Assembly: GCA_963796685.1 (NCBI GenBank) | Contig: CAWCMR010000010.1 | Span: 96,001 to 160,000, forward strand | DNA: 64,000 bases | From: an uncultured delta proteobacterium | Lineage (GTDB): Bacteria; Myxococcota_A; Polyangia; Fen-1088 | Reading direction: 5' to 3' | Part shown: piece by piece, positions 31,347-57,584 of the stretch | How positions within the stretch are numbered: the stretch's first letter is position 1 | Layout: each line of letters starts with the position of its first letter | Made by a program: the position numbers and the translations under genes | The notes under the pieces: model-generated | Databases searched by the model: none | What the model was told of the DNA's origin: nothing | Seen by the model: only the letters and a program-made list of their open reading frames with translations

Positions 31347-31396
31347 ATAGCACGTGCTGCCTTGTCATCATGGCTACTTATGACTATCTTATGGTC

Positions 31397-31657
31397 ATGA
31401 AGTCCGTTGGCGTAGCTGACCTGAAGGGGCATCTGAGCGAGCACTTGCGGAGTGTCCGACGCGGTCATCCGTTGATGGTGATGGATCGTGACACGCCTAT
31501 CGCCCAGATCCTGCCGTATCGCGCCGATCCGGCCAGCCTACCCGTGCGCCAACCCAGGCCGGGCGCGGGCAAGCCAATGGATTTCCGTCTACCCGAGGCG
31601 ACGAAATTGCGCCGCGATGCCGTGACCCTGTTACTCGCTGACAGGAACGAGCGGTGA
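31397..31657 (+). CDS. Phd/YefM family antitoxin
   Basis: VGVADLKGHLSEHLRSVRRG..MDRDTPIAQI. Confidence 0.85.
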   Translation: MKSVGVADLKGHLSEHLRSVRRGHPLMVMDRDTPIAQILPYRADPASLPVRQPRPGAGKPMDFRLPEATKLRRDAVTLLLADRNER

Positions 31658-32070
31658 TCGCCTACGTGGATTCCTCGGTGCTGCTGCGCCTCGTGCTCGG
31701 GCAGCGAGGCGCTCTGGCCGAATGGTCGACGGTCGAGGAAGGCGTCACCAGCGCGCTCTCCCAAGTGGAATGCCTGCGAACGCTAGATCGTCTGCGCATC
31801 GTCGAGCACATCTCGGATGTGGATTTGTCCACCCGGCGTGAAGCGATCTTCGGGATTCTCGCGACCTTGTCGGTTGTTGATGTCGCGGGCTCGGTTCTCG
31901 ACCGAGCAGCGCAGCCCTTGCCCACAGCCTTGGGCACACTGGATGCGATTCACCTGGCCACCGCGCAGCTCTGGCGCGAACGAACCGGGACCACCCTTAC
32001 CATGGCCACGCACGACACCGCCCTGGCGACAGCGGCACGCTCCCTCGGCATGCCCGTCGTCGGCGACTAG
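31654..32070 (+). CDS. vapC: PIN-domain toxin
   Basis: YVDSSVL, TLDAIHLATA, THD. Confidence 0.88.
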   Translation: MIAYVDSSVLLRLVLGQRGALAEWSTVEEGVTSALSQVECLRTLDRLRIVEHISDVDLSTRREAIFGILATLSVVDVAGSVLDRAAQPLPTALGTLDAIHLATAQLWRERTGTTLTMATHDTALATAARSLGMPVVGD

Positions 32071-32125
32071 CGAGGTACCCGGGGCCATAGGGAGCGTAGT
32101 TGTTTTAAGCGCCTCTCTTTCCTAA

Positions 32126-32153
32126 ATGTCCGGTAAGAAGCATTACGTTAACT
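32126..32153 (+). other. dif-like (XerC/XerD-type) site
   Basis: ATGTCCGGTAA-GAAGCA-TTACGTTAACT: 11+6+11 layout, right arm close to TTATGTTAAAT. Confidence 0.6.
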
Positions 32154-32177
32154 ACAAAGACCCACACGTCAGCCTCC

Positions 32178-32280
32178 TCGATCTATCCCTGTACCCCGGT
32201 GGGAAAACAAGCCCATTTTTGCGGTGGTCGCCGCCATGGATATGGCCTATCCCGGGCCCTGCTTTCGGGGGCCCACTTCG
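32178..32280 (-). mobile_element. Downstream (ori-like) end of IS91/ISCR-like element A
   Basis: Reverse complement ends GGGTACAGGGATAGATCGA; homologous to 55760-55858. Confidence 0.6.
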
Positions 32281-32697
32281 TCACCACTCGGGGCTGGGCG
32301 GGTCAGCGTAGTCGACCTCGGCGAGGTCGGACGTGCCCGAAAGCTCCGCCTGTGGCGGGGGGCGCGCAGCGGTGCGGAGCGGGGCTTGGCTGGGGATTCC
32401 GAGGTGGTCCAGAATCTTGCGTATCGCTTCTGGCTTTGTGATCGCGGCCAGGATCTTCATGCGCCCATGGCACTTTGGGCATGTCAGCGCGTCTGTCATG
32501 AACACGCGTTTCAGAAGGAGGGCCCAAGGCAGTCGACTGACTCTTGGTATCTTGGTGATGTCGATGTCGCTGGATTCGCCGGTGCCCGCCTTGTCGGTGG
32601 CTACCGAATCGGCGCCCGCCGCATCTGGCGTGGACGGCGCTGGGGGTGTCGGCACCACCTTGGCGCGGTCCTTCGCCGCAGGACCGAAGATCCCGTG
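32281..32697 (-). pseudogene. IS91-like transposase A, C-terminal fragment
   Basis: HGIFGPAAKDRAKVVP...WALLLKRVF..DALTCPKC.GRMKILA...IRKILDHLG. Confidence 0.85.
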
Positions 32698-33047
32698 TTA
32701 TGCGGAGCGCTCGATTATGCGGAGTTCAACCGTCCCCAAGTCCCGAGGCTCGCGTGTCCTGCGGACTGGACCGTCGCTGACTCCGCATAATATCAAGCCG
32801 ACGTCACCCAGGAGCGGAGGTCAGCGGTGTCTTGCTGGGCATCAGCGATGCGATGAGACGGTCCGGCGGCCGGAAGCGCCCGGGGCGTAGTCGGAGGGGC
32901 ACGATGGACTCGATAGCCTCGATCTTCTCGGTCGGATCGGCCTGCAGGTAGATCTCGGTGGTCGACTGGCTCGTGTGTCCGAGCCAGAGCGACACCTTGC
33001 GGAGATCCCCGGTGGCCCGGAGCGTGTCCAACGCGCATGTGTGCCGC
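32698..33047 (-). mobile_element. RIT-B terminal fragment (terminal repeat plus 3' tail of its third recombinase)
   Basis: Matches 48497-48846; encodes TCALDTLRATGDLRKVSLWLGH..TTEIY. Confidence 0.88.
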
Positions 33048-33166
33048 TTATGCCGTGCTCGGCATAAGCGGCATTATGCCGAGTCCCCGGTTATGCCGAG
33101 TTGCCCGCCATTGCATGCAGGAATCACGGGGACTTCGGGTTCGCTTACGTGCGCGACTCGGCATAA

Positions 33167-34165
33167 TCAAAGGCTCTGTAGGAAGGCGAGGAGCTTGTCG
33201 TCGGGGTGGAAGCGAGCAGGTCGCGCTGCCGAGGGTGCTGTCTTGGCCAGCGCCCGCTCTTTGAGCTGGAGACTGGCAGCGAAGTAGATCTGCGTGGTCT
33301 CGACCGACTCGTGACCAAGCCAGAGCGCGATCACCGAGCTGTCGACACCGGCTTGAAGGAGATCCATTGCCGTCGAGTGGCGCAGCACGTGCGGAGACAC
33401 ATGCTTCTCCCTCAGCGAGGGGCAGCGGATCCGAGCGACCTGCACGTGTTTCGCGAGCAGGTACTCGACGCCGTCGCGACTGAGGAAACCGCCCCGCGCG
33501 TTGGGGAAGAGGGGCTCGGTCCCGGTGGCGGCACGTTCGCGCAGCCACGCCCGGAGGACCGAGACGGCCTCTTTGCGCAGGGGCGTGCAACGTTCCTTGC
33601 GGCCCTTGCCGAGGCAGTGAACGTACGCGCCGGGTCCGAGGACCACGTCCTGCACGTTGAGCGCGGCCAGCTCGGATACGCGCAGCCCGGTCTGAACGGC
33701 CACAAGGAGCATGGCGCGATCGCGCCGGCCGGACCATGTGGCCTTGTCGGGAGCTTCGAGGAGTGCGTCGATCTCGGGCCGGGACAGGAAGTGGACGAGC
33801 TCGCGATCGTATTTCTTGCCCTGCATGGCCAGAACCCTCTGGATGACGGCGCTGTAGTCGGGCGCCTGGAGGGCGGCGTACTGGAAGAAGGAGTGGATCG
33901 CCGCGAGCCTGGCGTTGCGGGTGCGCGGAGAGTTGCCGCGGTCCTTCTCGATGTGATCCAGGAACGCGCCAATCGTTGGTGTGTCGAGGTCGTCCAGTGC
34001 GAGCGCCGAGGGAGTCTTCTTCAGGTGCTGCTTCGTGAAGGCCAGCAGTAGGCGGAAGGTATCGCGATAGCTCTGCACTGTATGTGGACTTGCTTGACGC
34101 TGGCGCAGGAGATGGTCCACGAAGAAGGACTCAAGCAGCGCAGGGAATCCGTGGGAGGGCTTCAC
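33167..34165 (-). CDS. RIT-A third tyrosine recombinase
   Basis: TGLRVSEL, GKGRKER, SPHVLRHS, WLGHES..TTQIY. Confidence 0.93.
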   Translation of the reverse strand: MKPSHGFPALLESFFVDHLLRQRQASPHTVQSYRDTFRLLLAFTKQHLKKTPSALALDDLDTPTIGAFLDHIEKDRGNSPRTRNARLAAIHSFFQYAALQAPDYSAVIQRVLAMQGKKYDRELVHFLSRPEIDALLEAPDKATWSGRRDRAMLLVAVQTGLRVSELAALNVQDVVLGPGAYVHCLGKGRKERCTPLRKEAVSVLRAWLRERAATGTEPLFPNARGGFLSRDGVEYLLAKHVQVARIRCPSLREKHVSPHVLRHSTAMDLLQAGVDSSVIALWLGHESVETTQIYFAASLQLKERALAKTAPSAARPARFHPDDKLLAFLQSL

Positions 34166-35097
34166 GGCGACGTCCTATCTCGCTCCAGGAGCGACATGGC
34201 GAGGCTCATCAACTCGGGCACTGCGGTCAGGTACCAGTAGGTATCACTGACGTGGGTGTGCCCGAGGTAGGTCGACAGCTGCGGCAGGTGCCGCTCCACA
34301 TCGACTCCTGCCCGGTACCAGCGCAGCATGGTGTCCACGGCCCACCGATGCCGAAGGTCATGCAGACGCGGCCCATGACCGTGACGACCTTCAGGACCAC
34401 GAAGCCCAATCCGGCGAGACAGATGGACGAAGGTGTCTTCTGCAGTGTTCTTCACCACCCGGGCACCTGTCTCGCCGACGAAGAAGCTTCTCGTCCGTGG
34501 TGTTGGATGAACGCGATCACGGAAGCGTGCGTACCGGCAAAGTGCCAGTTTCGTCGATCGATGAATGGGCACCAGCCGGGTCTTCCCGAATTTGGTCCGG
34601 CGGATTGTCAGGATCCCGCCTTCGAGGTCAACATCCTCGCGGTCGAGAGCGATCGCCTCGCTGATCCTCAGACCGGCCACGGTGAGCAGGCCAAGCAGCG
34701 TGACGTAGGTCTGAGCACGAAGCCCCGTCTGCGATGGGAGCCGTGCCGCCGCATCCATCAGCCGCATGATCTCGTCCTCGCTGTATATGTAGGGGCGCTT
34801 GCGTTGATACCGAGCCCGGAGGAGCCCGAGGGCAGGGACCTCGGTGCGAGAATCGGTGGCGCGCCAATACTGTGCAAAGAGCCGGACCGCCGATAGCCGG
34901 CTGGCCCAATACACGGGCTGGGTCTTGGTCGGCCGCACGGCCCATTCGACGACCAGATCGTTGGTAATGAACGGAGCCTTCCGCTGCTCCATGAAGGACA
35001 CAAATTGCAGCAGTAACCGCCCCGAGCGGTCGAGCTTGTAGCCCAGACGGCGTCGCAGCGACAGGTACTCCTCGGCGCCCTCGCGGAGCGTATTCAT
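34162..35097 (-). CDS. RIT-A second tyrosine recombinase
   Basis: GLRISEA, TKFGKTRLVP, HDLRH, YLGH..SDTYWY. Confidence 0.93.
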   Translation of the reverse strand: MNTLREGAEEYLSLRRRLGYKLDRSGRLLLQFVSFMEQRKAPFITNDLVVEWAVRPTKTQPVYWASRLSAVRLFAQYWRATDSRTEVPALGLLRARYQRKRPYIYSEDEIMRLMDAAARLPSQTGLRAQTYVTLLGLLTVAGLRISEAIALDREDVDLEGGILTIRRTKFGKTRLVPIHRSTKLALCRYARFRDRVHPTPRTRSFFVGETGARVVKNTAEDTFVHLSRRIGLRGPEGRHGHGPRLHDLRHRWAVDTMLRWYRAGVDVERHLPQLSTYLGHTHVSDTYWYLTAVPELMSLAMSLLERDRTSP

Positions 35098-36325
35098 CGC
35101 CTGCCTCCTGGCCATGCAGGAGCGAGCGCACGTAGCGCATGGAAGTCTACCTTCGCGTAAATCGTCGTCGTATCGGCTCGACGGTGTCGCAGGACCTGCC
35201 CGATCTCGGTAAGGGTCGCTCCTCGGCGCAGCATCGAGCAGGCGAGCGCATGGCGGAGGATGTGCCCGCCTTTGCGTGGTGGGTCCAGTTCGGCGCGTTC
35301 CAGCGCTCGCTTCACGATCGTACAGACCGCGCCCGTGGTTGCGAAGCCACGCCGCGGCGCTCTCGCGCGGACGAAGACTCTCCGGCACGAGCATGCTGGG
35401 CGGCCATGGCGCAAGTACCGGGCGACGGCCTTGCCGACATCGGACGGCAACGGGAGGACGTCTTGCCGCCCACCCTTGCCGTGGACCCGCAACGTGCCTG
35501 CGGCCCAGTCGAAGTCTGCCAGATCCAGGCTCACGACTTCTCCACCGCGGAGGCCGAGTCGTGCCATCAGCATAATGACCGCGTGGTCGCGCAGGCCGGC
35601 TTCGGAGTTTCTTCGTCGACAGCGGCGCAACAGATGCTCGACGTCGCGCGCGGGGATCGATTTCGGCACCGTTGAGAAACGCCAGCAGGCGACCGCGGGA
35701 ACCGTGGCCGCGAGGTCTGCAGCCAGGGCTCTTTTCACGTGCACCCACCGCAGAAAACCGCGTAGGGCGGTAACCATCAGAGCGGCTCTCTTTGGATGGA
35801 CCACGTGAACATGCCGGACCAGAAATTCACCCGCATCCTGGGGCCCGAGCGCATTGAGGTGCACCTCCTGCCGTCGAACCGCTCCAGGAGGAACGAGCGG
35901 ACAATGGGCAGGTAGTTGATCTGAGTCAAGACGGACAAGCCGCGGTCCACCAACAGATACCGGCCGAACTCACTCACGATCCGCCCGATCGCAGTGTCAT
36001 CGACCTTGACGGGCGCTGGCGGCGCAAGACCGGCGGAACGGACCCGTTCAAGGACATCACGCAATGTCGCTGCGTCTCCACGCCGGGGTACGCAGGGATG
36101 GCGCCGGACAAAGCGGGCTACGGCCTGCTCGTCGACCTCCTCGACAGTCAGTCCTCGCCGTCCAAGCCAGTCTCCGAACTTCGCTGCCAGGCGCACCTTG
36201 CACGCCACGGTCGCAGGCGGATATCCCCTCTCAGTGAGCGTTTTTGCAAACGTGTCGAGGTGCGGACCCAAGGGGCCAGCGCGCAGTCGTTGCCATTTCA
36301 GAAAATCGTCGTGCATCCGGGGCAT
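35094..36325 (-). CDS. RIT-A first tyrosine recombinase, 1-bp frameshift near 35865
   Basis: Matches 49014-50246 except GGAGGTG versus GGAGGGTG. Confidence 0.88.
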
Positions 36326-37557
36326 GTGTCCTCCTTCGGCCCGGTGGCCAGAAGGAGACGACGACGCCCTGGTTATGCCGAGTCCGCAAGCCCACCTGCC
36401 GAGGAAATCGCCGTTGATCGCGCCAGATCGAGAGGCTCACTCGGCATAACCGGGGACTCGGCATAATGGCGCAAGACGTGGGCGCCTTTGAATGGAAAGG
36501 TCAGCCGCGCACGCGTGAAGGCCAGTCGGACAGCGGCTGTCACAGCCGAGGAGCTGAGCGGCTGGCCCACCGGCAGCTGGTGCCGGACGAACATGTGACG
36601 ATCGTCGGTGTGCGGCCGGCCGCGGCGTAGGTAGTCAACCAGTGCGCGCCCCACCGGTGCGGGCAGCGGCAGGACACTGGCCCGCCGCTCCTTTCCGCGA
36701 CCGACTCGCAAGGTGCCCGCCCGCCAATCCACGTCATCGAGCAACAGCGCAGCGACTTCGCCGGCCCGCAAGCCAAGCCCAGCCATGCACGAAACCATCG
36801 CGTAGTCCCGCCGTCCAGTCGCCGCGGTCAAGTCGAACGACGCAAGCAAGGCGGCGAGTTGCTCGTCGGACAGACCTCGGGGAAGATTCCCTCGGCGCCA
36901 ATGCGCCACCTTGGGAACAGCGGCTGCCAGTGTCCCTTCGCACAGGCCAGCGACTTGCGCAAATCGAAGGAAGCTACGCAACGCCGTTCGGACAAGCCCC
37001 GCCGCGCCCGGCGAGTACTTTCTGGTCTGCTCCGACACGAAGCCAATCAATTCCTTGGGCCCAAGCCGGCGCAGATCGATCTCGCCAGTCCCGTAGAGGG
37101 AAACCAGAAACCGACGAACGTGCAAGACGTTGCCCTGGCTGGTGGCATCGGTCACTCCGCACGTGTTTTGTCGGTAGGTCCTGAAGGACTCGAGCATACG
37201 GTCCACAGGCGTCTGCACTGGCCGCTGTGGGGGGGTGGCTACGCCCTGTGCGCGCAGCACGGCCAACACGTGGTCCAGTGCCGCCCGCATGTGACAACGC
37301 AACCCGTGTGGCACCCGACACTTGCATCGCGGGAGGTGCCCTTCCAGGAACGACGCTAGGGTAACTTCCCCCACCGCGTTCGGGCTGATCCTTTTGAGAT
37401 CTAACCAATGGGAGAAGTGGCCGGCTGCGCACAGGTACGATTGCCCGACTCTCGGTGTATGACCGCGCTTCTCCAAATGCGCAGCGACATCGTCAAGGAT
37501 CCCGCCCAGCGCTCCGCCGCGAAGGCGAGCCAGCACATAGTCATAGGTGAAAAACTT

Positions 37558-38968
37558 GGCTCTCCTGACATCTTCGTAAAGGGAGATCTCGTAGGTGCGA
37601 CGCACGTCGCCGACGGAGATGTGGGCGGCATGAGTTCCGGGTGAGGTGGAGACGAAGTGCGCACGGGCACCTGGGGTATCGTGTGGCTTGTCTGGAACCC
37701 ACAAGCCCAGGAGCCCATGCGCGCAACCACCCTATTCCGAAACCTACTCCAATTTCCACATACCCGTGTCCTGGCGGTCGAATTCGATCTGCTTGGCATA
37801 TTGGTGCACGTGGCGCCAACGACGACCGTTCCCTACTGTTCAGGCTGCGGATGTCGGGTCCATGACGTGTTCGATGCTCGGGCTCGGAACTGGCGGCATC
37901 TGGACGCGTGCGGGATGGAGGTTCTTCTGCGCTACACCCTGCGCAGGGTTGACTGTCCTCGGTGCGGCGTGGTCATCGAGATGGTCCCTTGGGCCGAGCC
38001 GAAGGTCGGCTTCACGCGTGACTTCGAGGACCATGTGGCCTATCTGGCCCAACAAGCAAGCCAGACGATGGTGGCCGAAACCATGCGCATCGCGTGGCGC
38101 ACCGTCGGCGCCATCATCCAGCGGGTGGTGCCGCGGCACCGAGATCCTAGCCTTCTCCTCGAGGACCTCGAACACATCGGCGTCGACGAGTTGTCGTACC
38201 GGCGGCACCATGAGTACGTCACCGTCGTTGTCGACCACGTCTCGCAGCGGGTCGTCTGGGCACACGAGGGCAAGAACGCTGCGACGCTCGGCTGCTTCTT
38301 CGACGCTCTCGGCCCGGAACGAACCAGCAAGCTCAAGACCGTCACCATCGACATGTCCGCGGCCTACATCGACGCGGTCACCTCGCGAGCGCCACAAGCG
38401 CAGATCGTCTTCGACCGCTTCCACGTTCAGAGACTCGTGCAGGAAGCACTCGACGAGCTCCGGCGTGCGGAGGTCCGACTCCTGGAGGACACCGACGAAC
38501 GCGGGCAACTGAAGAAGACCAAGTACCTTCTGCTCAAGAATCCGTGGAACCTATCCAGGGCCGAGTCTGAGAGGCTTTCGACCCTCCCGAAGACCAATGC
38601 CCGACTCTATCGCGGCTACCTGCTCAAGATCGCCATCTGCGACATCCTCGGTCGTCGCCAGGTCAACGTCGTCAAACAGAAGCTCGAAGAATGGATCAGT
38701 TGGGCCAGGCGATCCAGACTACCTTCCTTCAAGAAGGTCGCCGCGACCATCAAGAAATACCTGGACGGCATCGTGGCCATTGTCGCCACAGGGCTCAATA
38801 ACGGAAGAACCGAGGGCCTTAATGGCAAGATCAGGGTCATCACCCGCAGGGCCTATGGCTTCCACAACGCTCAAGCCCTCATTGGCTTCATCTTCCTCTG
38901 CTGCTCAGGCGTTGTCCTTCATCCCGTCTTCAAGGTGCCCGCGCTTCCATGAAGATGTCAGGAGAGCC
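37558..38968 (+). mobile_element. ISL3-family insertion sequence
   Basis: IR GGCTCTCCTGACATCTTC / GAAGATGTCAGGAGAGCC; flanks AAAAACTT and AAAAACTG (7/8 match, target duplication). Confidence 0.93.
37717..38952 (+). CDS. ISL3 transposase
   Basis: CxxC zinc finger, IGVDE, IDMS, DRFHV, EGLNGKIR..RRAYGF. Confidence 0.95.
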   Translation: MRATTLFRNLLQFPHTRVLAVEFDLLGILVHVAPTTTVPYCSGCGCRVHDVFDARARNWRHLDACGMEVLLRYTLRRVDCPRCGVVIEMVPWAEPKVGFTRDFEDHVAYLAQQASQTMVAETMRIAWRTVGAIIQRVVPRHRDPSLLLEDLEHIGVDELSYRRHHEYVTVVVDHVSQRVVWAHEGKNAATLGCFFDALGPERTSKLKTVTIDMSAAYIDAVTSRAPQAQIVFDRFHVQRLVQEALDELRRAEVRLLEDTDERGQLKKTKYLLLKNPWNLSRAESERLSTLPKTNARLYRGYLLKIAICDILGRRQVNVVKQKLEEWISWARRSRLPSFKKVAATIKKYLDGIVAIVATGLNNGRTEGLNGKIRVITRRAYGFHNAQALIGFIFLCCSGVVLHPVFKVPALP

Positions 38969-39107
38969 AAAAACTGCTCCAGCATGAGTGCTCCTTCCTG
39001 GCCAACAGGCCATCAAGAGCGCCCAAGACTATGCTGACAAACAGAACCCACCAATTCGAGCGACCCACCGGGAAATCCAGCACAGATCGCGTGCGGGTCA
39101 CGAGCAA

Positions 39108-39160
39108 CTCAGCATAATCCGAAACTCAGCATAGGACGGTCTATGCTGAGTTCAGCATAG
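39108..39160. mobile_element. RIT-C terminal repeat, 6-mer and 20-bp palindrome
   Basis: CTCAGCATAA-TCCGAAA-CTCAGCATAG / GACGGT / CTATGCTG-AGTT-CAGCATAG. Confidence 0.8.
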
Positions 39161-39757
39161 TCCATCCATCACGATGACGTGGAAGTGAACATTCAGATTC
39201 AGCGACGACCCGAACCGTTGCACGACGGTGAGGCTTCCGGTCTGCAGTCGGCCTCGAAGCTTGCGCATGCGTGCGCGGCGGCGGAGGTCGGAGTTGATGG
39301 CGCTGATGAATGCACCTAAAACCACGCTCGTGGCGTCGGGTGAATAGGCCATTTTGAAGCGCAAGGCATAGGGTAGCGAGAGCACATATTGCCGAGCAGG
39401 CACCTGGGGAAAAAGGTAATCTACGCAGAAAGCTGCCGTGTCTGCCATGCGGCGGCCAAGACAGCTCGGGCAAAATCCACGCCGCTTACACGCGAACGCC
39501 ACGACTCTGCTGTGCCCACAGTCTTTGCATCGGACGCGAAGAAGGCCGTGCACGAGGATGCCACAACGAAGGTAAGCCTCGATCTCGTCAAGCACGAAGG
39601 CGGGCAGCTCGCCGCCTCCTGATTCCAGATCTGCCAGGAACGTCGCCCAGTGTTCCTGTATCGTTCGATAAAGCAAAGTCGCTTCGAAGCTATGCCGCTC
39701 ATACGAGCCCGCGGGCGCGTGGGTGTGACAGCTTGCTGCTGGTTGCGTGGAAAGCAC
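39161..39757 (-). pseudogene. IS91-like transposase A, N-terminal fragment (Zn-binding domain and HUH motif)
   Basis: YLRCG...CKRRGFCPSC...RQYVLSLP...QRFGSSLNLNVHFHVIVMDG, then cut. Confidence 0.9.
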
Positions 39758-40230
39758 CAGCGGAAGTTCTCGGCAACACGGAGATACTTGTTGCTAGCGG
39801 AACGGGCCGACGACGAGACCTGTCAGGCCGACAGGAAGTGATGGATGCGACCTCGCCTAGGCCATAGGCGATTCGAAGAGGTCCTTTTTGAGCGTCGGAG
39901 AACCCTGCCGGACCGCATCGGCGCTGCCACGAGCACTTCTGCGTAGTGCGCTTGACCGGGTTTCTGGGGCCTGACGGGAGCTTTCTCAAGCACGCAGGGC
40001 AGTCTACTGCATCCCGCCCTTGTCGACGTGCCGTCAGTTCAGCCAGTCTCCGCCCTCGCCACCAGATTGCGAGGGAGGTGGTCGTGCGGGCCAGAGTTTT
40101 GGGGCGTCGGTGGGTAGCCTCATGGCAGACAGGATTTTCTGAGAAGCTGGCTCCAAGAAATGTAGTGCGAAAGTGGCAGTGAAGGCTTGTCCTTTTCCTC
40201 GGGTGTCGCCACGGCGGGGACGGGGACGAC

Positions 40231-49013: not shown

Positions 49014-50246
49014 ATGCCCCGGATGCACGACGATTTTCTGAAATGGCAACGACTGCGCGCTGGCCCCTTGGGTCCGCACCTCGACACGTTTGCAAAAACG
49101 CTCACTGAGAGGGGATATCCGCCTGCGACCGTGGCGTGCAAGGTGCGCCTGGCAGCGAAGTTCGGAGACTGGCTTGGACGGCGAGGACTGACTGTCGAGG
49201 AGGTCGACGAGCAGGCCGTAGCCCGCTTTGTCCGGCGCCATCCCTGCGTACCCCGGCGTGGAGACGCAGCGACATTGCGTGATGTCCTTGAACGGGTCCG
49301 TTCCGCCGGTCTTGCGCCGCCAGCGCCCGTCAAGGTCGATGACACTGCGATCGGGCGGATCGTGAGTGAGTTCGGCCGGTATCTGTTGGTGGACCGCGGC
49401 TTGTCCGTCTTGACTCAGATCAACTACCTGCCCATTGTCCGCTCGTTCCTCCTGGAGCGGTTCGACGGCAGGAGGGTGCACCTCAATGCGCTCGGGCCCC
49501 AGGATGCGGGTGAATTTCTGGTCCGGCATGTTCACGTGGTCCATCCAAAGAGAGCCGCTCTGATGGTTACCGCCCTACGCGGTTTTCTGCGGTGGGTGCA
49601 CGTGAAAAGAGCCCTGGCTGCAGACCTCGCGGCCACGGTTCCCGCGGTCGCCTGCTGGCGTTTCTCAACGGTGCCGAAATCGATCCCCGCGCGCGACGTC
49701 GAGCATCTGTTGCGCCGCTGTCGACGAAGAAACTCCGAAGCCGGCCTGCGCGACCACGCGGTCATTATGCTGATGGCACGACTCGGCCTCCGCGGTGGAG
49801 AAGTCGTGAGCCTGGATCTGGCAGACTTCGACTGGGCCGCAGGCACGTTGCGGGTCCACGGCAAGGGTGGGCGGCAAGACGTCCTCCCGTTGCCGTCCGA
49901 TGTCGGCAAGGCCGTCGCCCGGTACTTGCGCCATGGCCGCCCAGCATGCTCGTGCCGGAGAGTCTTCGTCCGCGCGAGAGCGCCGCGGCGTGGCTTCGCA
50001 ACCACGGGCGCGGTCTGTACGATCGTGAAGCGAGCGCTGGAACGCGCCGAACTGGACCCACCACGCAAAGGCGGGCACATCCTCCGCCATGCGCTCGCCT
50101 GCTCGATGCTGCGCCGAGGAGCGACCCTTACCGAGATCGGGCAGGTCCTGCGACACCGTCGAGCCGATACGACGACGATTTACGCGAAGGTAGACTTCCA
50201 TGCGCTACGTGCGCTCGCTCCTGCATGGCCAGGAGGCAGGCGATGA
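49014..50246 (+). CDS. RIT-A first tyrosine recombinase
   Basis: LGLRGGEV, HGKGG, HILRH, LRHR..TTTIYAK. Confidence 0.93.
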   Translation: MPRMHDDFLKWQRLRAGPLGPHLDTFAKTLTERGYPPATVACKVRLAAKFGDWLGRRGLTVEEVDEQAVARFVRRHPCVPRRGDAATLRDVLERVRSAGLAPPAPVKVDDTAIGRIVSEFGRYLLVDRGLSVLTQINYLPIVRSFLLERFDGRRVHLNALGPQDAGEFLVRHVHVVHPKRAALMVTALRGFLRWVHVKRALAADLAATVPAVACWRFSTVPKSIPARDVEHLLRRCRRRNSEAGLRDHAVIMLMARLGLRGGEVVSLDLADFDWAAGTLRVHGKGGRQDVLPLPSDVGKAVARYLRHGRPACSCRRVFVRARAPRRGFATTGAVCTIVKRALERAELDPPRKGGHILRHALACSMLRRGATLTEIGQVLRHRRADTTTIYAKVDFHALRALAPAWPGGRR

Positions 50247-51178
50247 ATACGCTCCGCGAGGGCGCCGAGGAGTACCTGTCGCTGCGACGCCGTCTGGGCT
50301 ACAAGCTCGACCGCTCGGGGCGGTTACTGCTGCAATTTGTGTCCTTCATGGAGCAGCGGAAGGCTCCGTTCATTACCAACGATCTGGTCGTCGAATGGGC
50401 CGTGCGGCCGACCAAGACCCAGCCCGTGTATTGGGCCAGCCGGCTATCGGCGGTCCGGCTCTTTGCACAGTATTGGCGCGCCACCGATTCTCGCACCGAG
50501 GTCCCTGCCCTCGGGCTCCTCCGGGCTCGGTATCAACGCAAGCGCCCCTACATATACAGCGAGGACGAGATCATGCGGCTGATGGATGCGGCGGCACGGC
50601 TCCCATCGCAGACGGGGCTTCGTGCTCAGACCTACGTCACGCTGCTTGGCCTGCTCACCGTGGCCGGTCTGAGGATCAGCGAGGCGATCGCTCTCGACCG
50701 CGAGGATGTTGACCTCGAAGGCGGGATCCTGACAATCCGCCGGACCAAATTCGGGAAGACCCGGCTGGTGCCCATTCATCGATCGACGAAACTGGCACTT
50801 TGCCGGTACGCACGCTTCCGTGATCGCGTTCATCCAACACCACGGACGAGAAGCTTCTTCGTCGGCGAGACAGGTGCCCGGGTGGTGAAGAACACTGCAG
50901 AAGACACCTTCGTCCATCTGTCTCGCCGGATTGGGCTTCGTGGTCCTGAAGGTCGTCACGGTCATGGGCCGCGTCTGCATGACCTTCGGCATCGGTGGGC
51001 CGTGGACACCATGCTGCGCTGGTACCGGGCAGGAGTCGATGTGGAGCGGCACCTGCCGCAGCTGTCGACCTACCTCGGGCACACCCACGTCAGTGATACC
51101 TACTGGTACCTGACCGCAGTGCCCGAGTTGATGAGCCTCGCCATGTCGCTCCTGGAGCGAGATAGGACGTCGCCGTGA
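50243..51178 (+). CDS. RIT-A second tyrosine recombinase
   Basis: ATGA overlap; HDLRH, YLGH, TYWY. Confidence 0.93.
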   Translation: MNTLREGAEEYLSLRRRLGYKLDRSGRLLLQFVSFMEQRKAPFITNDLVVEWAVRPTKTQPVYWASRLSAVRLFAQYWRATDSRTEVPALGLLRARYQRKRPYIYSEDEIMRLMDAAARLPSQTGLRAQTYVTLLGLLTVAGLRISEAIALDREDVDLEGGILTIRRTKFGKTRLVPIHRSTKLALCRYARFRDRVHPTPRTRSFFVGETGARVVKNTAEDTFVHLSRRIGLRGPEGRHGHGPRLHDLRHRWAVDTMLRWYRAGVDVERHLPQLSTYLGHTHVSDTYWYLTAVPELMSLAMSLLERDRTSP

Positions 51179-52173
51179 AGCCCTCCCACGGATTCCCTGC
51201 GCTGCTTGAGTCCTTCTTCGTGGACCATCTCCTGCGCCAGCGTCAAGCAAGTCCACATACAGTGCAGAGCTATCGCGATACCTTCCGCCTACTGCTGGCC
51301 TTCACGAAGCAGCACCTGAAGAAGACTCCCTCGGCGCTCGCACTGGACGACCTCGACACACCAACGATTGGCGCGTTCCTGGATCACATCGAGAAGGACC
51401 GCGGCAACTCTCCGCGCACCCGCAACGCCAGGCTCGCGGCGATCCACTCCTTCTTCCAGTACGCCGCCCTCCAGGCGCCCGACTACAGCGCCGTCATCCA
51501 GAGGGTTCTGGCCATGCAGGGCAAGAAATACGATCGCGAGCTCGTCCACTTCCTGTCCCGGCCCGAGATCGACGCACTCCTCGAAGCTCCCGACAAGGCC
51601 ACATGGTCCGGCCGGCGCGATCGCGCCATGCTCCTTGTGGCCGTTCAGACCGGGCTGCGCGTATCCGAGCTGGCCGCGCTCAACGTGCAGGACGTGGTCC
51701 TCGGACCCGGCGCGTACGTTCACTGCCTCGGCAAGGGCCGCAAGGAACGTTGCACGCCCCTGCGCAAAGAGGCCGTCTCGGTCCTCCGGGCGTGGCTGCG
51801 CGAACGTGCCGCCACCGGGACCGAGCCCCTCTTCCCCAACGCGCGGGGCGGTTTCCTCAGTCGCGACGGCGTCGAGTACCTGCTCGCGAAACACGTGCAG
51901 GTCGCTCGGATCCGCTGCCCCTCGCTGAGGGCGAAGCATGTGTCTCCGCACGTGCTGCGCCACTCGACGGCAATGGATCTCCTTCAAGCCGGTGTCGACA
52001 GCTCGGTGATCGCGCTCTGGCTTGGTCACGAGTCGGTCGAGACCACGCAGATCTACTTCGCTGCCAGTCTCCAGCTCAAAGAGCGAGCGCTGGCCAAGAC
52101 AGCACCCTCGGCAGCGCGACCTGCTCGCTTCCACCCCGACGACAAGCTCCTCGCCTTCCTACAGAGCCTTTGA
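51175..52173 (+). CDS. RIT-A third tyrosine recombinase
   Basis: GTGA overlap; catalytic R..K..HxLRH..LGH..Y residues present. Confidence 0.93.
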   Translation: MKPSHGFPALLESFFVDHLLRQRQASPHTVQSYRDTFRLLLAFTKQHLKKTPSALALDDLDTPTIGAFLDHIEKDRGNSPRTRNARLAAIHSFFQYAALQAPDYSAVIQRVLAMQGKKYDRELVHFLSRPEIDALLEAPDKATWSGRRDRAMLLVAVQTGLRVSELAALNVQDVVLGPGAYVHCLGKGRKERCTPLRKEAVSVLRAWLRERAATGTEPLFPNARGGFLSRDGVEYLLAKHVQVARIRCPSLRAKHVSPHVLRHSTAMDLLQAGVDSSVIALWLGHESVETTQIYFAASLQLKERALAKTAPSAARPARFHPDDKLLAFLQSL

Positions 52174-52266
52174 TTATGCCGAGTCGCGCACGTAAGCGAA
52201 CCCGAAGTCCCCGTGATTCCTGCATGCAATGGCGGGCAACTCGGCATAACCGGGGACTCGGCATAA

Positions 52267-53033
52267 TGCCGCAGCGTGTGTGGCGAAACACTTCTGCCGG
52301 CCAGCGATGGGCACGCGACCGCTGCGGCGGCAACGTGCTTGCGAAGCACATATTCGAAGCCCGAGCGCGACATAGGGTGAGCGGTGGCCGCGAGGAACAA
52401 CTCGGGACAGGAGGCAGTGCCTCGGATGGCGAGCCAGGCGCGGATAGCGTCGCCTACTTCCTTCCACAGCAGGAGCGCGCGCTCCTTGCGACCCTTGCCG
52501 AGCACGCAAATCTCGACGTAGCGGCCGTCGAAGCGCACGTTGTCGAGGCGCAGCCCGACGAGCTCGGAGACACGCAATCCGCCAGTGAGTGCGAGGTAGA
52601 GCATGGCGCGGTCGCGAATGCCGAGACGCGACGCTGGGTCCGGCGCGTCGAGGACGGCACGCGATTCCGTGGCCGACAGATGTTTCACCAGGCGGGTGTC
52701 GGTGCGCTGCAACGGGATCGCAAGCACGCGCTGGATCTGGTCGAGCGCCGCGGGAACGCGATACTCGATGAAGTGCATGAAGGATCGGACGGCGGCCAGC
52801 CGCGTGTTGCGTGAGCGGGCGCCGTTGCCGCGCTCGCGTTGGATGTGGTCGAGGAATGCCAGCACGAGAGACGCGTCGATGTGCTCGATCTGGATCTCGG
52901 AGGGCGTTACGCCCAGGCGCCTGCTTGCGAACGCGAACAAGAGTTGGAAGGCATATGCATAGGCGACGCGCGTATTTTCACAGGTGATCCGCTCACGAAG
53001 AAACGCGGTGATGTGTGGAGCGATCGGGGTCAT
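52267..53033 (-). pseudogene. RIT-B third recombinase, 5' part, cut at SPHTLRH
   Basis: MTPIAPHITAFL...GLRVSEL...GKGRKER...SPHTLRH, then RIT-A IR. Confidence 0.88.
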
Positions 53034-53941
53034 CGGCGTCCTCCTTCGAAGCGACGCTGGCAGGCGTCGGCAACCTGCGACATGAGCATTGGCGTGGCCT
53101 GAAAGTACCAGTAGGTATCAGCGATACAGCTGTGGCCGAGGTACGTCGAAACCGCGAGCATGTGCCTGGCGATTCGATCGCGCCGATCAGGAGAGCTTTC
53201 GAGAGCGCGCACGGCGAATGTGTGCCGGATGTCGTGCACGCGCGGTTTGCGTCCTCCCGACCGCGCCGGCAGGCCAGCTTTCCGGAGCACCGTGAGCCAT
53301 GCCTTGCGAAAGCCGCCGTAGGAAAGACGCGTGCCTTTGATGCTCACGAACACGTGGTCGTCGCTGCCGGCCACTGCACGTCGGCGGTCCAGATACTGCT
53401 TGATCCCGCTCTGCGCCGAGGGATGGAGCGGGACCAGACGCGTCTTGCCGAACTTGGTCTTGCGGATGACCAGGCCGTCCGATGTCACGTCAGCCATGCG
53501 CAAGGCGAGTGCTTCTGAGATGCGTAGCCCTGTCGCAAAGAGCAGCGCCAGCATCGTGCTCACGGTGAGCGGCCGGAGCGACTTTGCTGGTCCGAGCCGC
53601 GCTGCGACCTCGACGAGCCGGCGCGTTTCGTCCGGGGTGTAGATGTACGGAACCGGCCGATGCCGCTTTCCCGAGAAGTGGCGATCCGGGGGAATCTCGT
53701 GGCGGGGGTCTTCGGCGTGGAGATAGCGGGCGAGTTGAACGACCCGCTGGAAGAGCCGGCACCGCTGGCCAGGTGTGGCCGCGTGCGATGCCCACGCGAG
53801 GGCGGTTTCGGCGCGAACGTGGTCCTCGCCGCGGGCGGCGGCGAACTCGGCGAATCGACGCAGGTGCCGCTCGTATTTTCTGAGCGCGAAACCGCTTGCT
53901 CGCCGCGTGGCCAGCCAGGTATCGATGAGTGTCATCAGCAT
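53030..53941 (-). CDS. RIT-B second tyrosine recombinase
   Basis: TGLRISEAL, TKFGKTRLVP, HDIRH, YLGH..DTYWY. Confidence 0.92.
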   Translation of the reverse strand: MLMTLIDTWLATRRASGFALRKYERHLRRFAEFAAARGEDHVRAETALAWASHAATPGQRCRLFQRVVQLARYLHAEDPRHEIPPDRHFSGKRHRPVPYIYTPDETRRLVEVAARLGPAKSLRPLTVSTMLALLFATGLRISEALALRMADVTSDGLVIRKTKFGKTRLVPLHPSAQSGIKQYLDRRRAVAGSDDHVFVSIKGTRLSYGGFRKAWLTVLRKAGLPARSGGRKPRVHDIRHTFAVRALESSPDRRDRIARHMLAVSTYLGHSCIADTYWYFQATPMLMSQVADACQRRFEGGRR

Positions 53942-55176
53942 GACGCCCCTCCGATCCACGGCTGCGCCACTGAACGCAGAAGCTCCACATCGACCTTGGC
54001 GTAGTGGGAGGTCGTCTCGACAGATCGGTGCCGGAGCACTATTCCGATCGAAGGAAGGGAGATGCCTTCACGTAGCATCGCCGTCGCGGCAGAGTGACGC
54101 AGTAGATGAGCGCCCCGGGTCGGGGTGGATGCGCCCGCACGGGCGATGGCGCGCTTGACGATGCAGGAAACGCAGGAACTTTCCGCCAACGGCCGCCACG
54201 GTGTACGGGATCTCAGAAAAACCCGGTCACATCCGACAACAGCGCGCCGGGCGCGCAAGTAGGCGAGGATCGCATCTCCGACTTCCTGGGGGAGCGGCAG
54301 CCGCACCTCGCGGCGCCCCTTGCCCGCGACCTGCACGCGAGCGTTTGCCCAGTCGATGTCGCTTAGGCGCATCCGGACGATGTCGCCGCCCCGTAGTCCG
54401 AGCCGGGCGAGGAGCAGCAGGATGGCGCGGTCGCGCGCACCGTCCGGTCGACTCGAATCGCACGCGTCGATGATCCGCTGCACGACTTCGGCGGACACGT
54501 ACCTCGGCAGCGAATCCAAACTCCAACTCGCCACTGGCAGGACGGCCGCATCAAGACCAGGTCGGCACCGTCCCTCCAGTGCGAGGTAGCGCAGAAATGC
54601 GCGTGCGACGGTCGTAACTTGCTTCGCCGTTGCGGCGCCATGTCCACCGACTACCTCACGCACCGCCGCTCGAAGCACGCCCGCCCCGTAGCGAGCGGGG
54701 TCGTCACCGAGGTGTTCCAGGAGTGCGATGGCAACGCGCCTGTAGTGGCGCAAGGTCGTATCTGTGGCGCCACGCTGGCGCCGCATCCACTCGCAAAACC
54801 CCGTCACCAGATCCGGTGTTGCTATCGCCTGCTGCCCCGGAACCGCAACGACCCCCACTGTGCGCAAGTACTGCACGAAGACCCACGTGCGCGGACGGGC
54901 GACTGCATGAAAACCGGCGCGGTTTCCGGGGCAACGGCATCGAGACAGGTGCGCCAAGAATGCGCTCAAAGTTTCCTCGTCCAAATCCCCGATTCGCACG
55001 TCCTCAGCAGTGGCCCAAATGCCGAGATGCACGGCGTAGGTGATGCACCATGTGCCAATCCGCTTGCAGTAGCCGATCTCGCGTAGAGCGGTGGCGAAGC
55101 CGTCGAGATACGACCCAACGGGACTCGATCGAGCTCGCGCGAGCCAGTACGCCGATCGCAGAAAGTACTCCAACAT
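53935..55176 (-). CDS. RIT-B first tyrosine recombinase
   Basis: GAGGAGG RBS, MLEYFLRS; LGLRGGDI, AHLLRHS, LRHRSVETTSHYAK. Confidence 0.92.
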   Translation of the reverse strand: MLEYFLRSAYWLARARSSPVGSYLDGFATALREIGYCKRIGTWCITYAVHLGIWATAEDVRIGDLDEETLSAFLAHLSRCRCPGNRAGFHAVARPRTWVFVQYLRTVGVVAVPGQQAIATPDLVTGFCEWMRRQRGATDTTLRHYRRVAIALLEHLGDDPARYGAGVLRAAVREVVGGHGAATAKQVTTVARAFLRYLALEGRCRPGLDAAVLPVASWSLDSLPRYVSAEVVQRIIDACDSSRPDGARDRAILLLLARLGLRGGDIVRMRLSDIDWANARVQVAGKGRREVRLPLPQEVGDAILAYLRARRAVVGCDRVFLRSRTPWRPLAESSCVSCIVKRAIARAGASTPTRGAHLLRHSAATAMLREGISLPSIGIVLRHRSVETTSHYAKVDVELLRSVAQPWIGGASC

Positions 55177-55341
55177 TGTTTCCTCCTCGGTGGACGGGTC
55201 GGGATCATCCCGGCCCTGAGAGGAGGACACCTCCGTTATGCTGAGCCGTCTAGGGCGCGCCACGCGGTCAACTACCCGCCGACACGCAGGGATCGTGACG
55301 GGCACATCGCGGCACTCCGCATAATCGAGCGCTCCGCATAA

Positions 55342-55758
55342 CATGGCATCCTCGGCCCCGCGGCCAAGGATCGCGCCAAGGTGGTGCCGACCCCGCCCAC
55401 GCCACCCGCGCCAGATGCGGCGGGTGCCGAGGCGGCCGGCGCGGACAAGGCGGGCGAGGGTGAATCTCGCGAGATCGACCTCAGCAAGAGACCAAGAGTC
55501 AGCCGACTGCCTTGGGCCATTCTTCTCAAACGCGTGTTCCTGACAGACGCGCTGACATGCCCGAAGTGCCAAGGGCGGATGAAGATCCTGGCCGCGATCA
55601 CAAAGCCAGAAGCAATACGCAAGATTCTAGAACACCTAGGAATCCCCAGCGAAGCCCCACGCCGCACCTCCGCGCGTCCACCGCCGCAATCTGAGCTTTT
55701 GGGCACGTCCGACCTCGCCGAGGTCGACTACGCGGACCCGCCCAGCCCCGAGTGGTGA
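55342..55758 (+). pseudogene. IS91-like transposase B, C-terminal fragment
   Basis: HGILGPAAKDRAKVVP...CPKCQGRMKILA; close paralogue of 32281-32697. Confidence 0.85.
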
Positions 55759-55837
55759 CGACCCTGGGGCTCCAGAAGTGGGGCCGGGATAGGCCATGTC
55801 CATGGCTACACCGCCTCGCAAAATGGGCTTGTTTTCC

Positions 55838-56817
55838 CCTGGGTATAGGGGTCATCGAAGGGAAAATGGCCCTTGTTCCGCCTACCTGCCTGACCGGCGG
55901 GAGTGCCTGGAGGCCGAAATGGATGAACCCGTGCAGCGTGGTTTGCTCGGCGGCCCAGTCGTAGGCATCGCGCGTTCCCGGCCGCTGCAAGAGCACGGTC
56001 CCAGCCGGCGCCGCGATTGCCCGGCCATTGCGGTAGGCGACGCAATCGCCGCTGGAGCTCCAGTCCGGGAAGCGGCGGCCATACCGATTCTGCGCGCTCG
56101 CGCCGCCATCGAGGCTTTGCCTTGCCGCTCATTGCCGGCTCCATCCTAACCCCGCCGGGTGAATTTCGGGCCCGTCTTCGTGACCCGCGATGAGTCTGGA
56201 GACGGAAATGACCTATGGGGGCCCTATTGTTTGATGAGGAGGTCGGCGCGGGTCAGTGTGAGGGAGGCTGGCTTGCCTTGGATCGACAGGGTCGCGCGCA
56301 CCAAGGTCGGGCCTGAGCTTGACACGCGGGCTTGGCAGTCGGTTCTGCAGCGTAGTTGATGGGAGTCGCCTATCTCCGAGCGGAAGCTGCATACGCGTGC
56401 CGCGTGGCTCAACGGGACGGGTTCGCACGTGGCGTGTCCGACCAACACGTCCCTCTGGAGCAGGTCGATATCGTACTTTGCCCTGAGGTCGCCTTGATAA
56501 GTGGCGTCGAAGTCGATCCAAAAGTGCACCTTCGACTTCGCATCGAGGTCGACCATGGTCTGGTTCCGTCCCGGCCCCGAAAACCGAACCGTGCCAACCG
56601 TGGCACCACAGGCTCCAGGACCGAAGAGAAGAAGGAGCCACCACCATGGCAAGCACCTCATGGCCCGAGTATGTCTCCCCTGAATTGGTTTCACAACGTC
56701 GGGTTCGGGTGCAATGGTCCGCTACCGAGAGCGCTTCGCCGCGGCAGTACTCCGTCATCGGGACGATTCGTGGCCAGTGTCAGAGACTGTCCCCGGCCTG
56801 GGTATAGGGGTCATCGA
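55838..56817 (+). repeat. Perfect 21-bp direct repeat of an IS91/ISCR ori-like end bracketing about 0.94 kb
   Basis: CCTGGGTATAGGGGTCATCGA at 55838-55858 and 56797-56817. Confidence 0.85.
56224..56694 (-). CDS. Hypothetical exported protein
   Basis: Hydrophobic N-terminus, GACG, beta-rich body with cysteines; start uncertain. Confidence 0.55.
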   Translation of the reverse strand: MKPIQGRHTRAMRCLPWWWLLLLFGPGACGATVGTVRFSGPGRNQTMVDLDAKSKVHFWIDFDATYQGDLRAKYDIDLLQRDVLVGHATCEPVPLSHAARVCSFRSEIGDSHQLRCRTDCQARVSSSGPTLVRATLSIQGKPASLTLTRADLLIKQ

Positions 56818-56836
56818 TTGGGTGTGTGGGACATGT

Positions 56837-56865
56837 AGGTTACGTAACATCCCTTTATCGGCGTT
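56837..56865 (-). other. Second dif-like site, inverted relative to 32126
   Basis: Reverse complement AACGCCGATAA-AGGGATG-TTACGTAACCT (6-7 bp spacer depending on register). Confidence 0.5.
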
Positions 56866-56970
56866 TTTGCTGGTGAAGGCAAAACGGTGCTTCAAATACC
56901 TACGCTCAAATGGCTGTCGTGAACACCGTTGGTCGGTGTGGCTCCCGCGCTCTTCACGGTCAGGGCGCGT

Positions 56971-57366
56971 TCAGGTAGTCCACCGGATGCGCACTTCAGG
57001 ATAGCGGCAAATGGTCTCGTCTTTGGTCGCGAGCTCTGCGTTGTGTTCCAGGGCCGTGGCGACGAGGACACGGTCGATTGGGTCCTTGTGAATGTCGGGG
57101 AGAAATGCCGAGCGTGCAGCGATCCTTGGTGTAAGCGGCAACAGCAGAATGCCCGCGCCGTCGATGGCTTTGAGAAAGAACTCATCGATCGGAACTGGCA
57201 ACGCCACGCGGCCTTTCTTGGACAGCCACGCGACCTCAAGGCAAGACACCGATGCAACCGCAATGGGATCGGGCGAATTGCTGATGAGGTTGCGCATGGC
57301 CTGCGGCAACTCGGACGCGTCACCGCGTATCCACCACAGCCAGGTGTGGGTGTCGAGAATGATCAC
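56971..57366 (-). CDS. vapC: PIN-domain toxin
   Basis: IILDTHTWLWW, SCLEV, HKDPIDRVLVATA, TKD. Confidence 0.9.
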   Translation of the reverse strand: MIILDTHTWLWWIRGDASELPQAMRNLISNSPDPIAVASVSCLEVAWLSKKGRVALPVPIDEFFLKAIDGAGILLLPLTPRIAARSAFLPDIHKDPIDRVLVATALEHNAELATKDETICRYPEVRIRWTT

Positions 57367-57584
57367 CCGGTGATATTCCAGTCCTGCAAATCTATCGCGG
57401 GTCCTACGACGTCGCCCGTGATCCGCAGTGCCGAGAGCTCGGGCGGGGGGGTGCGAACGCCTGCGGCCCTCTCCGGGTCGAGAACCAGGAAGATGGCTTC
57501 CACCTTGGCGTGCGGGGGCAGCGGTGGCACGGCGCCAAGCCGCCCATTCTCGTCCGTCTCCAGCAATACCCTGTGCGCTTGCAT
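57363..57584 (-). CDS. Putative antitoxin
   Basis: 73 aa, GTGA-coupled to vapC; C-terminal ITGDVVGPAID..DW. Confidence 0.7.
   Translation of the reverse strand: MQAHRVLLETDENGRLGAVPPLPPHAKVEAIFLVLDPERAAGVRTPPPELSALRITGDVVGPAIDLQDWNITG

Follow-up and report, generated by a model that had tools for sequence, protein, structure and literature searches.

We analyzed a 64-kb stretch of DNA (the window) from the draft genome of an uncultured delta proteobacterium (G000; other G-numbers denote related genomes) and found in it two copies of an ISCR-like member of the IS91 family of insertion sequences (IS), which we named IS91-W. The origin end (oriIS) of IS91-W is a block of ~110 bp that contains a mimic of dif, the site at which the host recombinases XerC and XerD act. 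We propose that, in this bacterial class, the oriIS of IS91/ISCR elements retains a mimic matching the dif of the host in which the element resides and that the elements use XerC/XerD, and that the recombinase-in-trio (RIT) elements nested in the same copies home to conserved codons (RYHG, MDG, and HxLRH) and carry along 6-nt words of their earlier targets. Taken whole, the proposal is tentative and falls a little short of probable, and the degree of confidence differs among its parts. We have good confidence that the structural reading is right and that the dif mimicry is real. Binding of the mimic by Xer proteins in vivo appears likely from its sequence, and any one proposed use of the site is possible at best, and rather doubtful.

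The block is the oriIS-terminal segment of IS91-W. Its identity and its position within the element are demonstrated by three features: the C-terminus of the transposase lies inward of the block, intact copies carry the block at their 3′ end, and the outer terminus is of the ISCR type. Intact copies are present in G010 (two) and G003 (one), with the block ~100 bp past the stop codon of the transposase gene; in the intact copy L054, the outer block end is 212 bp past the stop codon. Over 92% of its length, the intact transposase shares 39% identity with those of ISCR1 and ISVsa3. Against NCBIfam, the L054 protein matches ISCR clade Ia (E value 1.1e-98; 331 bits, below the cut-off of 925) and IS91 (E value 2.9e-25), and the window fragments match Pfam Zn_Tnp_IS91 (E value 3.1e-16) and Y2_Tnp. 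In the sense of the transposase gene, the oriIS terminus reads ...CCTAYGCTC (...CTACGCTC in the left copy), and the block ends in GGTGCTTCAAATACCTACGCTC in the right copy and GGCGCTTAAAACAACTACGCTC in the left. A palindrome lies subterminally at this end, and the dif mimic occupies the middle of the block. The ISCR1 end is GGTTTATACTTCCTATACCC (with CCTATACCC), 232 bp past the stop codon, and the ISVsa3 end is GCGTTTATTCTTCCTATACG. The opposite end (terIS) is common to three IS91-W copies, and an alignment of these three ends shows GTTC beside a palindrome, which matches the terIS description for the IS91 family in PMC13181058. IS91-W shares with ISCR and IS91 elements a transposase with zinc-binding and Y2_Tnp domains, distinct oriIS and terIS, and a CCTAT-type ori terminus ~210 to 230 bp past the stop codon. 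In contrast to the described members that we found, it alone has a dif-like site in the ori end, and our literature search found no publication joining the IS91 family with a dif site.

Both window copies of IS91-W are dead and mutually inverted, and in each the oriIS end is the outer one. The middle of the transposase gene is missing from the left copy, and its zinc-binding and HUH parts are missing from the right; the left 3′ part (32201-32691) is 85% identical to its inverted partner (55850-55314). The toxin-antitoxin (TA) pairs, dif-like sites, CCCACAC words, and flanking motifs listed in the initial annotation, which was made from this sequence alone, all lie where it placed them. Its proposal that the block is an IS91/ISCR-type oriIS end is borne out by the ISCR-like terminus and by the intact copies in G010 and G003. 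Its placement of the end of the right IS at 56817 does not hold: the right IS91-like copy ends at 55838-55890 in a 52-bp block, and the full block at 56797-56907 stands alone ~900 bp outward of that end. Solo blocks could be minimal copies of the element, three copies of which have one ter end in common. A second IS91 type in G000 (the C9 type) has 12 copies (G000:C9:6000-131000) with an identical 3′ end, ...CGCCTATGGCC, and variable 5′ extents, a pattern that is the clear signature of one-ended rolling-circle transposition. The C9-type 3′ ends have no profile-detectable block and no dif match of 16/22 or better.

A profile built from 18 block copies, all from genomes other than G000, matches the window at 56909-56797 (E value 3.7e-26), 32090-32198 (E value 1.5e-9), and 55891-55857 (E value 2.5e-6). 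A block profile has 19 matches over all of G000, where the copies are dispersed; eight blocks are strong, and most of these have no adjoining IS91-W transposase gene. The left and right window blocks are identical at 65 of 111 aligned positions, a likeness that, judged by alignment and profile, exceeds chance. In an alignment of 26 copies (A1), the block termini are alike and inverted (GAGCRTAGG ... CCTATACCC). The inner boundary, sharp in all copies, carries a motif like CCTATACCC in the opposite orientation.

Which site is dif in this lineage? A looser search gave one candidate, ATGTCCGATAA-CAGATA-TTATGTCAACT at G000:C13:401374, which lies at the cumulative GC-skew maximum of a 700-kb contig; the skew rises to ~400 to 420 kb and then falls. 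The 28-mer is present with 0 to 3 mismatches in all 13 genomes of the genus that we compared (G000 and 12 congeners). Eleven of these have one copy, and both G003 and G004 have an additional match of the block type. Overall, 19 of 41 relatives contain it, a reversed-pattern control gave no matches, and its flanks are unrelated between genomes. This site is taken as the lineage's dif. We scored dif-like sites by the number of arm positions, out of 22, that match it, with the spacer scored apart. The best matches to the dif arms anywhere in G000 are block cores, at 20 (copy C25a), 19, 19, 19 (the window site at 32126), 18, and 17/22. For a 6-nt spacer, the chance tail over the whole of G000 is 61 sites at 15/22, 13 at 16, and 3 at 17, and extrapolation of this tail gives ~0.03 expected sites at 19/22. 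The right window site (16/22, with a 7-nt spacer) is weak alone and is, by its membership in the aligned block family, homologous. Among the proteins of G000 are a XerC-like one and a XerD that scores over the NCBIfam cut-off, with genes at G000:C25:1429670 and C5:107356; which arm of the mimic belongs to XerC and which to XerD we assume by analogy with Escherichia coli.

The initial annotation had proposed an HUH element physically coupled to a Xer-type site, to be judged against the genome's own dif and GC skew. With dif at the skew maximum, a core at 32126 that agrees with it at 19/22, and element sites that track the candidate dif in other host groups, this coupling now appears sound. Two other comparisons were set aside. 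Against an E. coli-type consensus, the 32126 site looked like chance, with no good match in G000 and 257 sites scoring equally; the lineage dif overturned that reading. The pattern CATAA-N6-TTATG, tried as a proxy for dif, has eight sites in G000 (0.75 expected by composition), all of which are RIT junctions. As a separate observation, the degenerate arm of the mimic is the transposase-proximal one and the well-kept arm is proximal to the ori terminus, in both orientations of the mimic (A1; loci L172, L179, and L181).

We surveyed 30 loci with IS91-W-like transposases drawn from the class, 16 of them from the host family. In that family, 10/16 loci have a site at 15/22 or better and 7/16 at 17 or better, ~100 to 150 bp past the stop codon as we read the coordinates, and the site is antisense to the gene in every case. 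The site is kept at 18 to 19/22 even where the transposases are 49 to 53% identical and the remaining block is undetectable by profile. Other host families have different candidate dif sequences, each a single pattern match per genome, and G321 and G038 have the same candidate 28-mer, as do G056 and G207. Their left arms are TTGTCGCCTAA (G336), GGATCGCATAA (G025), and ATTTCGCAGAA (G056 and G207). The element sites in these genomes agree with their own host's candidate at 20/22 (G336), 19/22 (G025), 19/22 (G056), and 16/22 (G207), lie an estimated ~90 to 180 bp past the stop codon, and are in sense orientation. In a cross-table, the left (XerC-side) arm best matches its own host in seven of eight cases; the loci in G026, G434, and G444 have no clear site. 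Such retention through deep divergence, together with host tracking, would be expected of a working Xer-binding site; the alternative is repeated capture. A further idea was that an element typically lies between two direct dif-like sites; it holds for locus L193 and was rejected on four other loci. At G000:C11, the profile finds two direct blocks, yet one site only scores 16 or better, which makes it a weak two-site case.

It is tempting to ask what a transposon would do with such a site. The mimicry suggests that the transposon uses the host Xer recombinases. IS91-W would spread in the ordinary way through its HUH transposase, which would leave dispersed copies, and host XerC and XerD would bind the mimic. 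In the use that we prefer, Xer would act on a double-stranded circle of the element and, with no protein from the element itself, recombine it into dif or the site of another copy. About equally likely, Xer would resolve tandem or co-integrate products of rolling-circle transposition. In the part of PMC13181058 that deals with such circles, the double-stranded ones are described as not inserted by the IS91 transposase itself, and the handling of IS91/ISCR circular intermediates is presented as still debated.

Related strategies are known from two other systems. The Xer-exploiting integrative mobile elements (IMEXs; e.g., CTX-phi, VGJ-phi, and TLC-phi) share with IS91-W an HUH protein of the rolling-circle type and a copy of the host dif that is imperfect. 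Attachment sites of IMEXs appear to be degenerate in a similar way to the mimic. IMEXs have no transposase and are found at dif, whereas IS91-W has its own transposase, is dispersed, and lies at none of 12 relatives' dif sites. For CTX-phi, Xer-driven integration and rolling-circle replication are both described in PMC6744903, PMC9226527, and PMC4439123. The Acinetobacter pdif modules likewise have several dif-like XerC/D sites at places other than the chromosomal dif, in many cases close to TA genes. However, these modules are bounded by two oppositely oriented sites, whereas IS91-W has one site and the TA pairs are unbounded.

Several observations weigh against a working Xer site in oriIS. 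There is no site at 6/16 host-family loci, 3 of which have <230 bp of downstream sequence, or at 3/5 loci of family f2, two of them with little downstream sequence; one window copy (55838-55890) also has no dif-like site. One arm of the mimic is always imperfect, in family f1 at right-arm positions 3 and 4 (TTAC, TTCT, or TTCC for TTAT). By our reading of A1, the spacer is 6 nt long in 17/26 blocks, 7 nt in 8, and 5 nt in 1, and spacer sequences differ from that of dif. Given this spacer variation, many copies may not be recombination-proficient. At all 12 dif loci examined in relatives, the 1.5 kb to either side is free of IS91 transposase genes and element copies, and the 328 bp around G000's own dif contain no block. 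For the other families, the basis of the dif candidates is one pattern match per genome plus identity between related genomes rather than GC skew. We also found no conserved fold: single-stranded DNA folds of seven block copies do not exceed shuffles in stability (z, -0.67 to 2.29) and the alignment fold of 26 copies has 0 pairs, with a 9-bp subterminal stem in copy C11a and no family-wide conserved fold in that alignment. G000 is a 26-contig draft (88.6% complete, 6.5% contamination), and identical 3.4-kb repeats could hide a misassembly in it. Finally, 13 of 19 blocks in relatives are solitary, so the block might be a separate small element.

This last point leads to an explanation that we consider unlikely: the block would be a small element, or a docking site, in its own right with a dif-like core, and IS91-W would insert beside it at a fixed point after CCCTATACCCAGG. 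The solitary blocks in relatives and the strong G000 blocks without an adjoining transposase gene would fit it, as would the similar, inverted block termini and the sharp inner boundary. In addition, PMC10132070 describes insertion sequences that target dif. IS1202-family elements, which target dif and pdif, would be a precedent for such insertion. However, the outer terminus is an ISCR oriIS in its orientation, its distance from the stop codon, and its sequence type, and without the block IS91-W would have no recognizable ori end. Where transposases are ~50% identical and the remaining block sequence has diverged, the elements still have the dif-like site in the same position, and the opposite orientation of the site in other families fits an element-carried site better than a shared target. 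The same persistence bears on a second possibility, that the core is a passive relic, decaying and functionless, captured when an ancestor stood beside dif and its ori end shifted outward. Variable spacers, an arm that is always degenerate, a copy without the core, and several loci without a site are what decay would leave. But 18 to 19 of 22 arm positions kept amid unalignable flanks, at 49 to 53% transposase identity, are not expected without selection, and the match to different host dif arms in four host groups and two orientations would need repeated independent capture. We regard a relic as improbable.

Least credible, to the point that we give it almost no weight, is a strong form of the initial annotation's view, in which the whole 26-kb region (31397-57584) is a mirror-symmetric unit with Xer sites as its borders, either an IMEX-like element or a dif-module platform, and the TA pairs are stabilizing cargo. 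It draws on the inverted dif-like sites at 32126 and 56837, each by an inward-pointing TA operon, and on the fact that three of eight strong G000 blocks adjoin TA operons (two VapBC and one HigBA). Synteny contradicts it. The region is a mosaic rather than a single element, and its mirror symmetry arises because it holds two inverted dead IS91-W copies. Its center, with genes for an SNF2 helicase and an MMPL transporter, is conserved chromosome: 40530-47375 is contiguous in G002 (92 to 93% identity) and G010 (85 to 87%), and the MMPL gene is present in 13/13 genomes of the genus, including G000. The MMPL gene follows the aminotransferase gene that ends at 31346 at a distance of 0.7 to 2.8 kb in G001, G003, and G005. 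In the closest relatives, G002 and G010, the SNF2 and MMPL genes come farther on after the aminotransferase gene, and to the right of MMPL, G010 resumes with window 62909-64000. From the relatives' synteny, 31347-40529 and ~47640-62900 are thus two separate accessory clusters, inserted beside native genes. An IMEX-like nature is further at odds with copies that are dispersed and found at dif in none of the 12 relatives' loci examined.

The TA pairs fare no better as parts of such a unit. Both fit the type II VapBC layout of a small antitoxin gene overlapping a PIN toxin gene, with a 4-nt overlap and PIN domains over the Pfam cut-off. The left antitoxin matches Pfam PhdYeFM (E value 1.5e-5, below the gathering score) and NCBIfam phd_fam (22.2 bits, over the cut-off), and its toxin matches PIN at an E value of 5e-10; the 73-aa open reading frame (ORF) of the right pair has no family match in Pfam or NCBIfam. 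The initial annotation was right that both operons point inward and belong to different subfamilies, as the two VapC proteins have no BLASTP-level similarity. However, the block is not always next to an IS91-like ori and a TA pair, as the annotation had suggested checking, and a dif-module layout is not supported: 13 of 19 blocks in relatives stand alone, a TA domain lies within 900 bp of 0/19 of them, and both pairs lie outside the sites with no second dif-like site flanking either (best 14/22; only two sites in the window reach 15/22). The left block starts 21 bp past the left pair and the right block 63 bp past the right pair. Homologs of the left pair in congeners (74 to 77% identity) are at other loci, not beside the aminotransferase gene, and the homolog of the right pair in G001 (84% identity) is 7 to 9 kb from the nearest block. 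With 44 PIN-domain matches, G000 has many TA loci. We read the adjacency of block and TA pair as insertion into TA-rich accessory DNA; the TA pairs are neighbors of the element and its block, not parts of them. The layout of the region is given in Table 1.

Table 1. Layout of the mosaic region of the window, listed from left to right.
Feature	Position	Strand	Description
Left TA pair	31397-32070	+	Phd/YefM-like antitoxin, 31397-31657; VapC PIN toxin, 31654-32070
Left block	32092-32200	-	oriIS end of IS91-L (left IS91-W copy); GAGCGTAG at 32092, CCCACAC, CCCTGTACCCC ending at 32200
Left dif mimic	32126-32153	+	ATGTCCGGTAA-GAAGCA-TTACGTTAACT; 19/22 arm positions of lineage dif
IS91-L, 3′ part	32201-32691	-	Y2/HUH transposase C-terminus from the ...ILGPAAK codons on; tblastn to other IS91 copies
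RIT-A fragment	32692-33041	-	RIT-B type; end repeat and ritC 3′ end; 99% identical to 48491-48866
RIT element E, copy 1	33042-36472	-	Includes 20-bp linker, 33048-33067; three tyrosine recombinase genes; ritA frameshift near 35865
RIT-3 fragment	36473-39166	-	ritA 5′ part; end repeat, 39107-39134; linker, 39141-39160
ISL3-family element	37556-38970	+	Pfam, NCBIfam; interrupts RIT-3 fragment
IS91-L, 5′ part	39167-39828	-	Zinc-binding domain to HUH motif ...NVHFHVIVMDG; Pfam Zn_Tnp_IS91, Y2_Tnp start; terIS end at 39828
C9-type IS91 remnant	39850-40420	-	ori end near 39868
SNF2 helicase and MMPL transporter genes	40530-47375	-	Conserved chromosomal backbone, outside any element
IS91-R (right IS91-W copy), 5′ part	47851-48470	+	terIS end at 47851; internal deletion removes zinc-binding and HUH regions
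RIT-B	48471-55347	-	ritA, ritB, ritC; inserted at His-Gly codons of RYHG motif of IS91-R transposase
RIT element E, copy 2	48841-52272	+	Inside ritC of RIT-B
IS91-R, 3′ part	55348-55837	+	Transposase C-terminus
Shortened oriIS block of IS91-R	55838-55890	+	Both termini kept, dif mimic deleted; sequence and profile match
Solo right block	56797-56907	-	GAGCGTAGG from 56907, CCCACAC, CCCCTATACCCAGG ending at 56797
Right dif-like site	56865-56837	-	7-nt spacer; 16/22 arm positions
Right TA pair	56971-57584	-	Antitoxin candidate of 73 aa, 57363-57584; VapC PIN toxin, 56971-57366 (Pfam PIN, E value 5.8e-14)

The two dead transposase genes are interrupted by nested RIT elements. In the portions of PMC10214605, PMC3414803, and PMC8138268 that define them, RIT elements are ritA, ritB, and ritC in tandem between inverted end repeats; E and RIT-B in the window have the same layout, with three adjacent same-strand tyrosine recombinase genes and inverted end repeats. 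Element E encodes proteins of 410 (RitA), ~303 (RitB), and 332 (RitC) aa between 34-bp end repeats, and RIT-B has ORFs of 545, 309, and 326 aa, the last interrupted by E. G000 holds five copies of E that are 99.9% identical, with RitA intact in three and frameshifted in two; the copies outside the window are at G000:C11:3906-7311, C12:29777-33183, and C25:680655-684059. RIT-B is also found at G000:C11:3531-10398 and from G000:C25:678524 onward, and the RIT-3 fragment is 99.8% identical to G000:C12:29776-28529. RIT copies are 99.9% identical, compared to only 85 to 86% for the host IS copies. A query for an intact RIT-B ritC, the empty site for E, found none in the genus, and E-type RitA has a single relative, at 48% identity, in 250 other genomes of the phylum. 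As a side observation, E copy 1 bridges RIT-3 and the RIT-A fragment, as if the DNA between two E copies had been deleted.

Each of these elements sits in a particular set of codons. RIT-B shares one insertion point in four G000 copies of IS91-W, in both orientations, with a 20-bp linker to one or the other side; at this point, the uninterrupted gene reads GTCCGATAC-CACGGC-ATCCTCGG in 3/3 intact genes. The linker between RIT-B ends carries two inverted arms, and its variation in side is what a circle that can open at two alternative sites would give. RIT-3 (window 39107-39166; G000:C12:28529-35409) lies in the MDG codons that immediately follow the HUH motif in the transposase gene of IS91-L, and its junction words (GATGGA, GACGGT, and GATGGG) all encode Asp-Gly. 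E always lies within the HxLRH codons of another RIT's ritC or ritA, with junction words G-CGN-CA. More broadly, we examined 60 loci with relatives of the RIT-B RitA, 16 of which have IS91-family transposase matches; 11 of these 16 transposases are broken at residues 335 to 338. The junction word beside the ritA-side end repeat is CAYGGN, i.e., synonymous His-Gly codons, in 15 of 18 readable loci, and the flank is HG[VIL][LF]A[PS] in nine cases, which represent at least six transposase lineages. RIT-B-type insertions are also found in metagenome contigs of many samples (L075 and L079-L134). Table 1 of PMC10214605 lists RIT target specificity and movement as not tested. In the present elements, sequence directly reveals the insertion points, the junction words of 6 nt, and the 20-bp linker between the ends.

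Other features of the window stand apart from these subjects. Window 47674-47850 and 63575-63752 form a 177-bp direct repeat (88% identical), of which one copy abuts the terIS end of IS91-R. The repeat is single-copy in G002 and G010, next to the region that matches window 62909-64000, and it may be flanking DNA carried by one-ended transposition. The ISL3-family element has 20-bp perfect inverted ends and at least 14 near-identical copies in G000. A 942-aa ORF (58040-60868, minus strand) has no Pfam or NCBIfam match and lies in accessory DNA that is absent from the 12 congeners searched; part of the sequence beside it (57741-58407) recurs on contig C26 at 92% identity. Comparison of the window with itself shows tandem and nested direct repeats at 9680-11450 (e.g., 10280-10834 versus 10803-11363, 97.5% identical). 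Rfam and tRNA scans (window 29000-61000 and 29000-64000) gave no matches. In four soil-metagenome runs from one study, 20 to 34% of the sampled words around dif are present; because these runs are available as contigs only, rare junctions are not visible in them.

IS91 and ISCR elements move antibiotic-resistance and virulence genes. The nested RITs offer the first readable target sites for elements whose movement, by the account in the pertinent part of PMC10214605, has not been reproduced in the laboratory. A host-matched mimic in the ori end would link rolling-circle transposition to Xer; outside phage-like IMEXs and the plasmid modules of Acinetobacter, no such link is known so far. If this is true, the site of an element is predicted to follow the dif of its host, and circles would have a transposase-free route to integration or resolution, e.g., on entering a new cell. 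These would then be the first insertion sequences known to exploit Xer.

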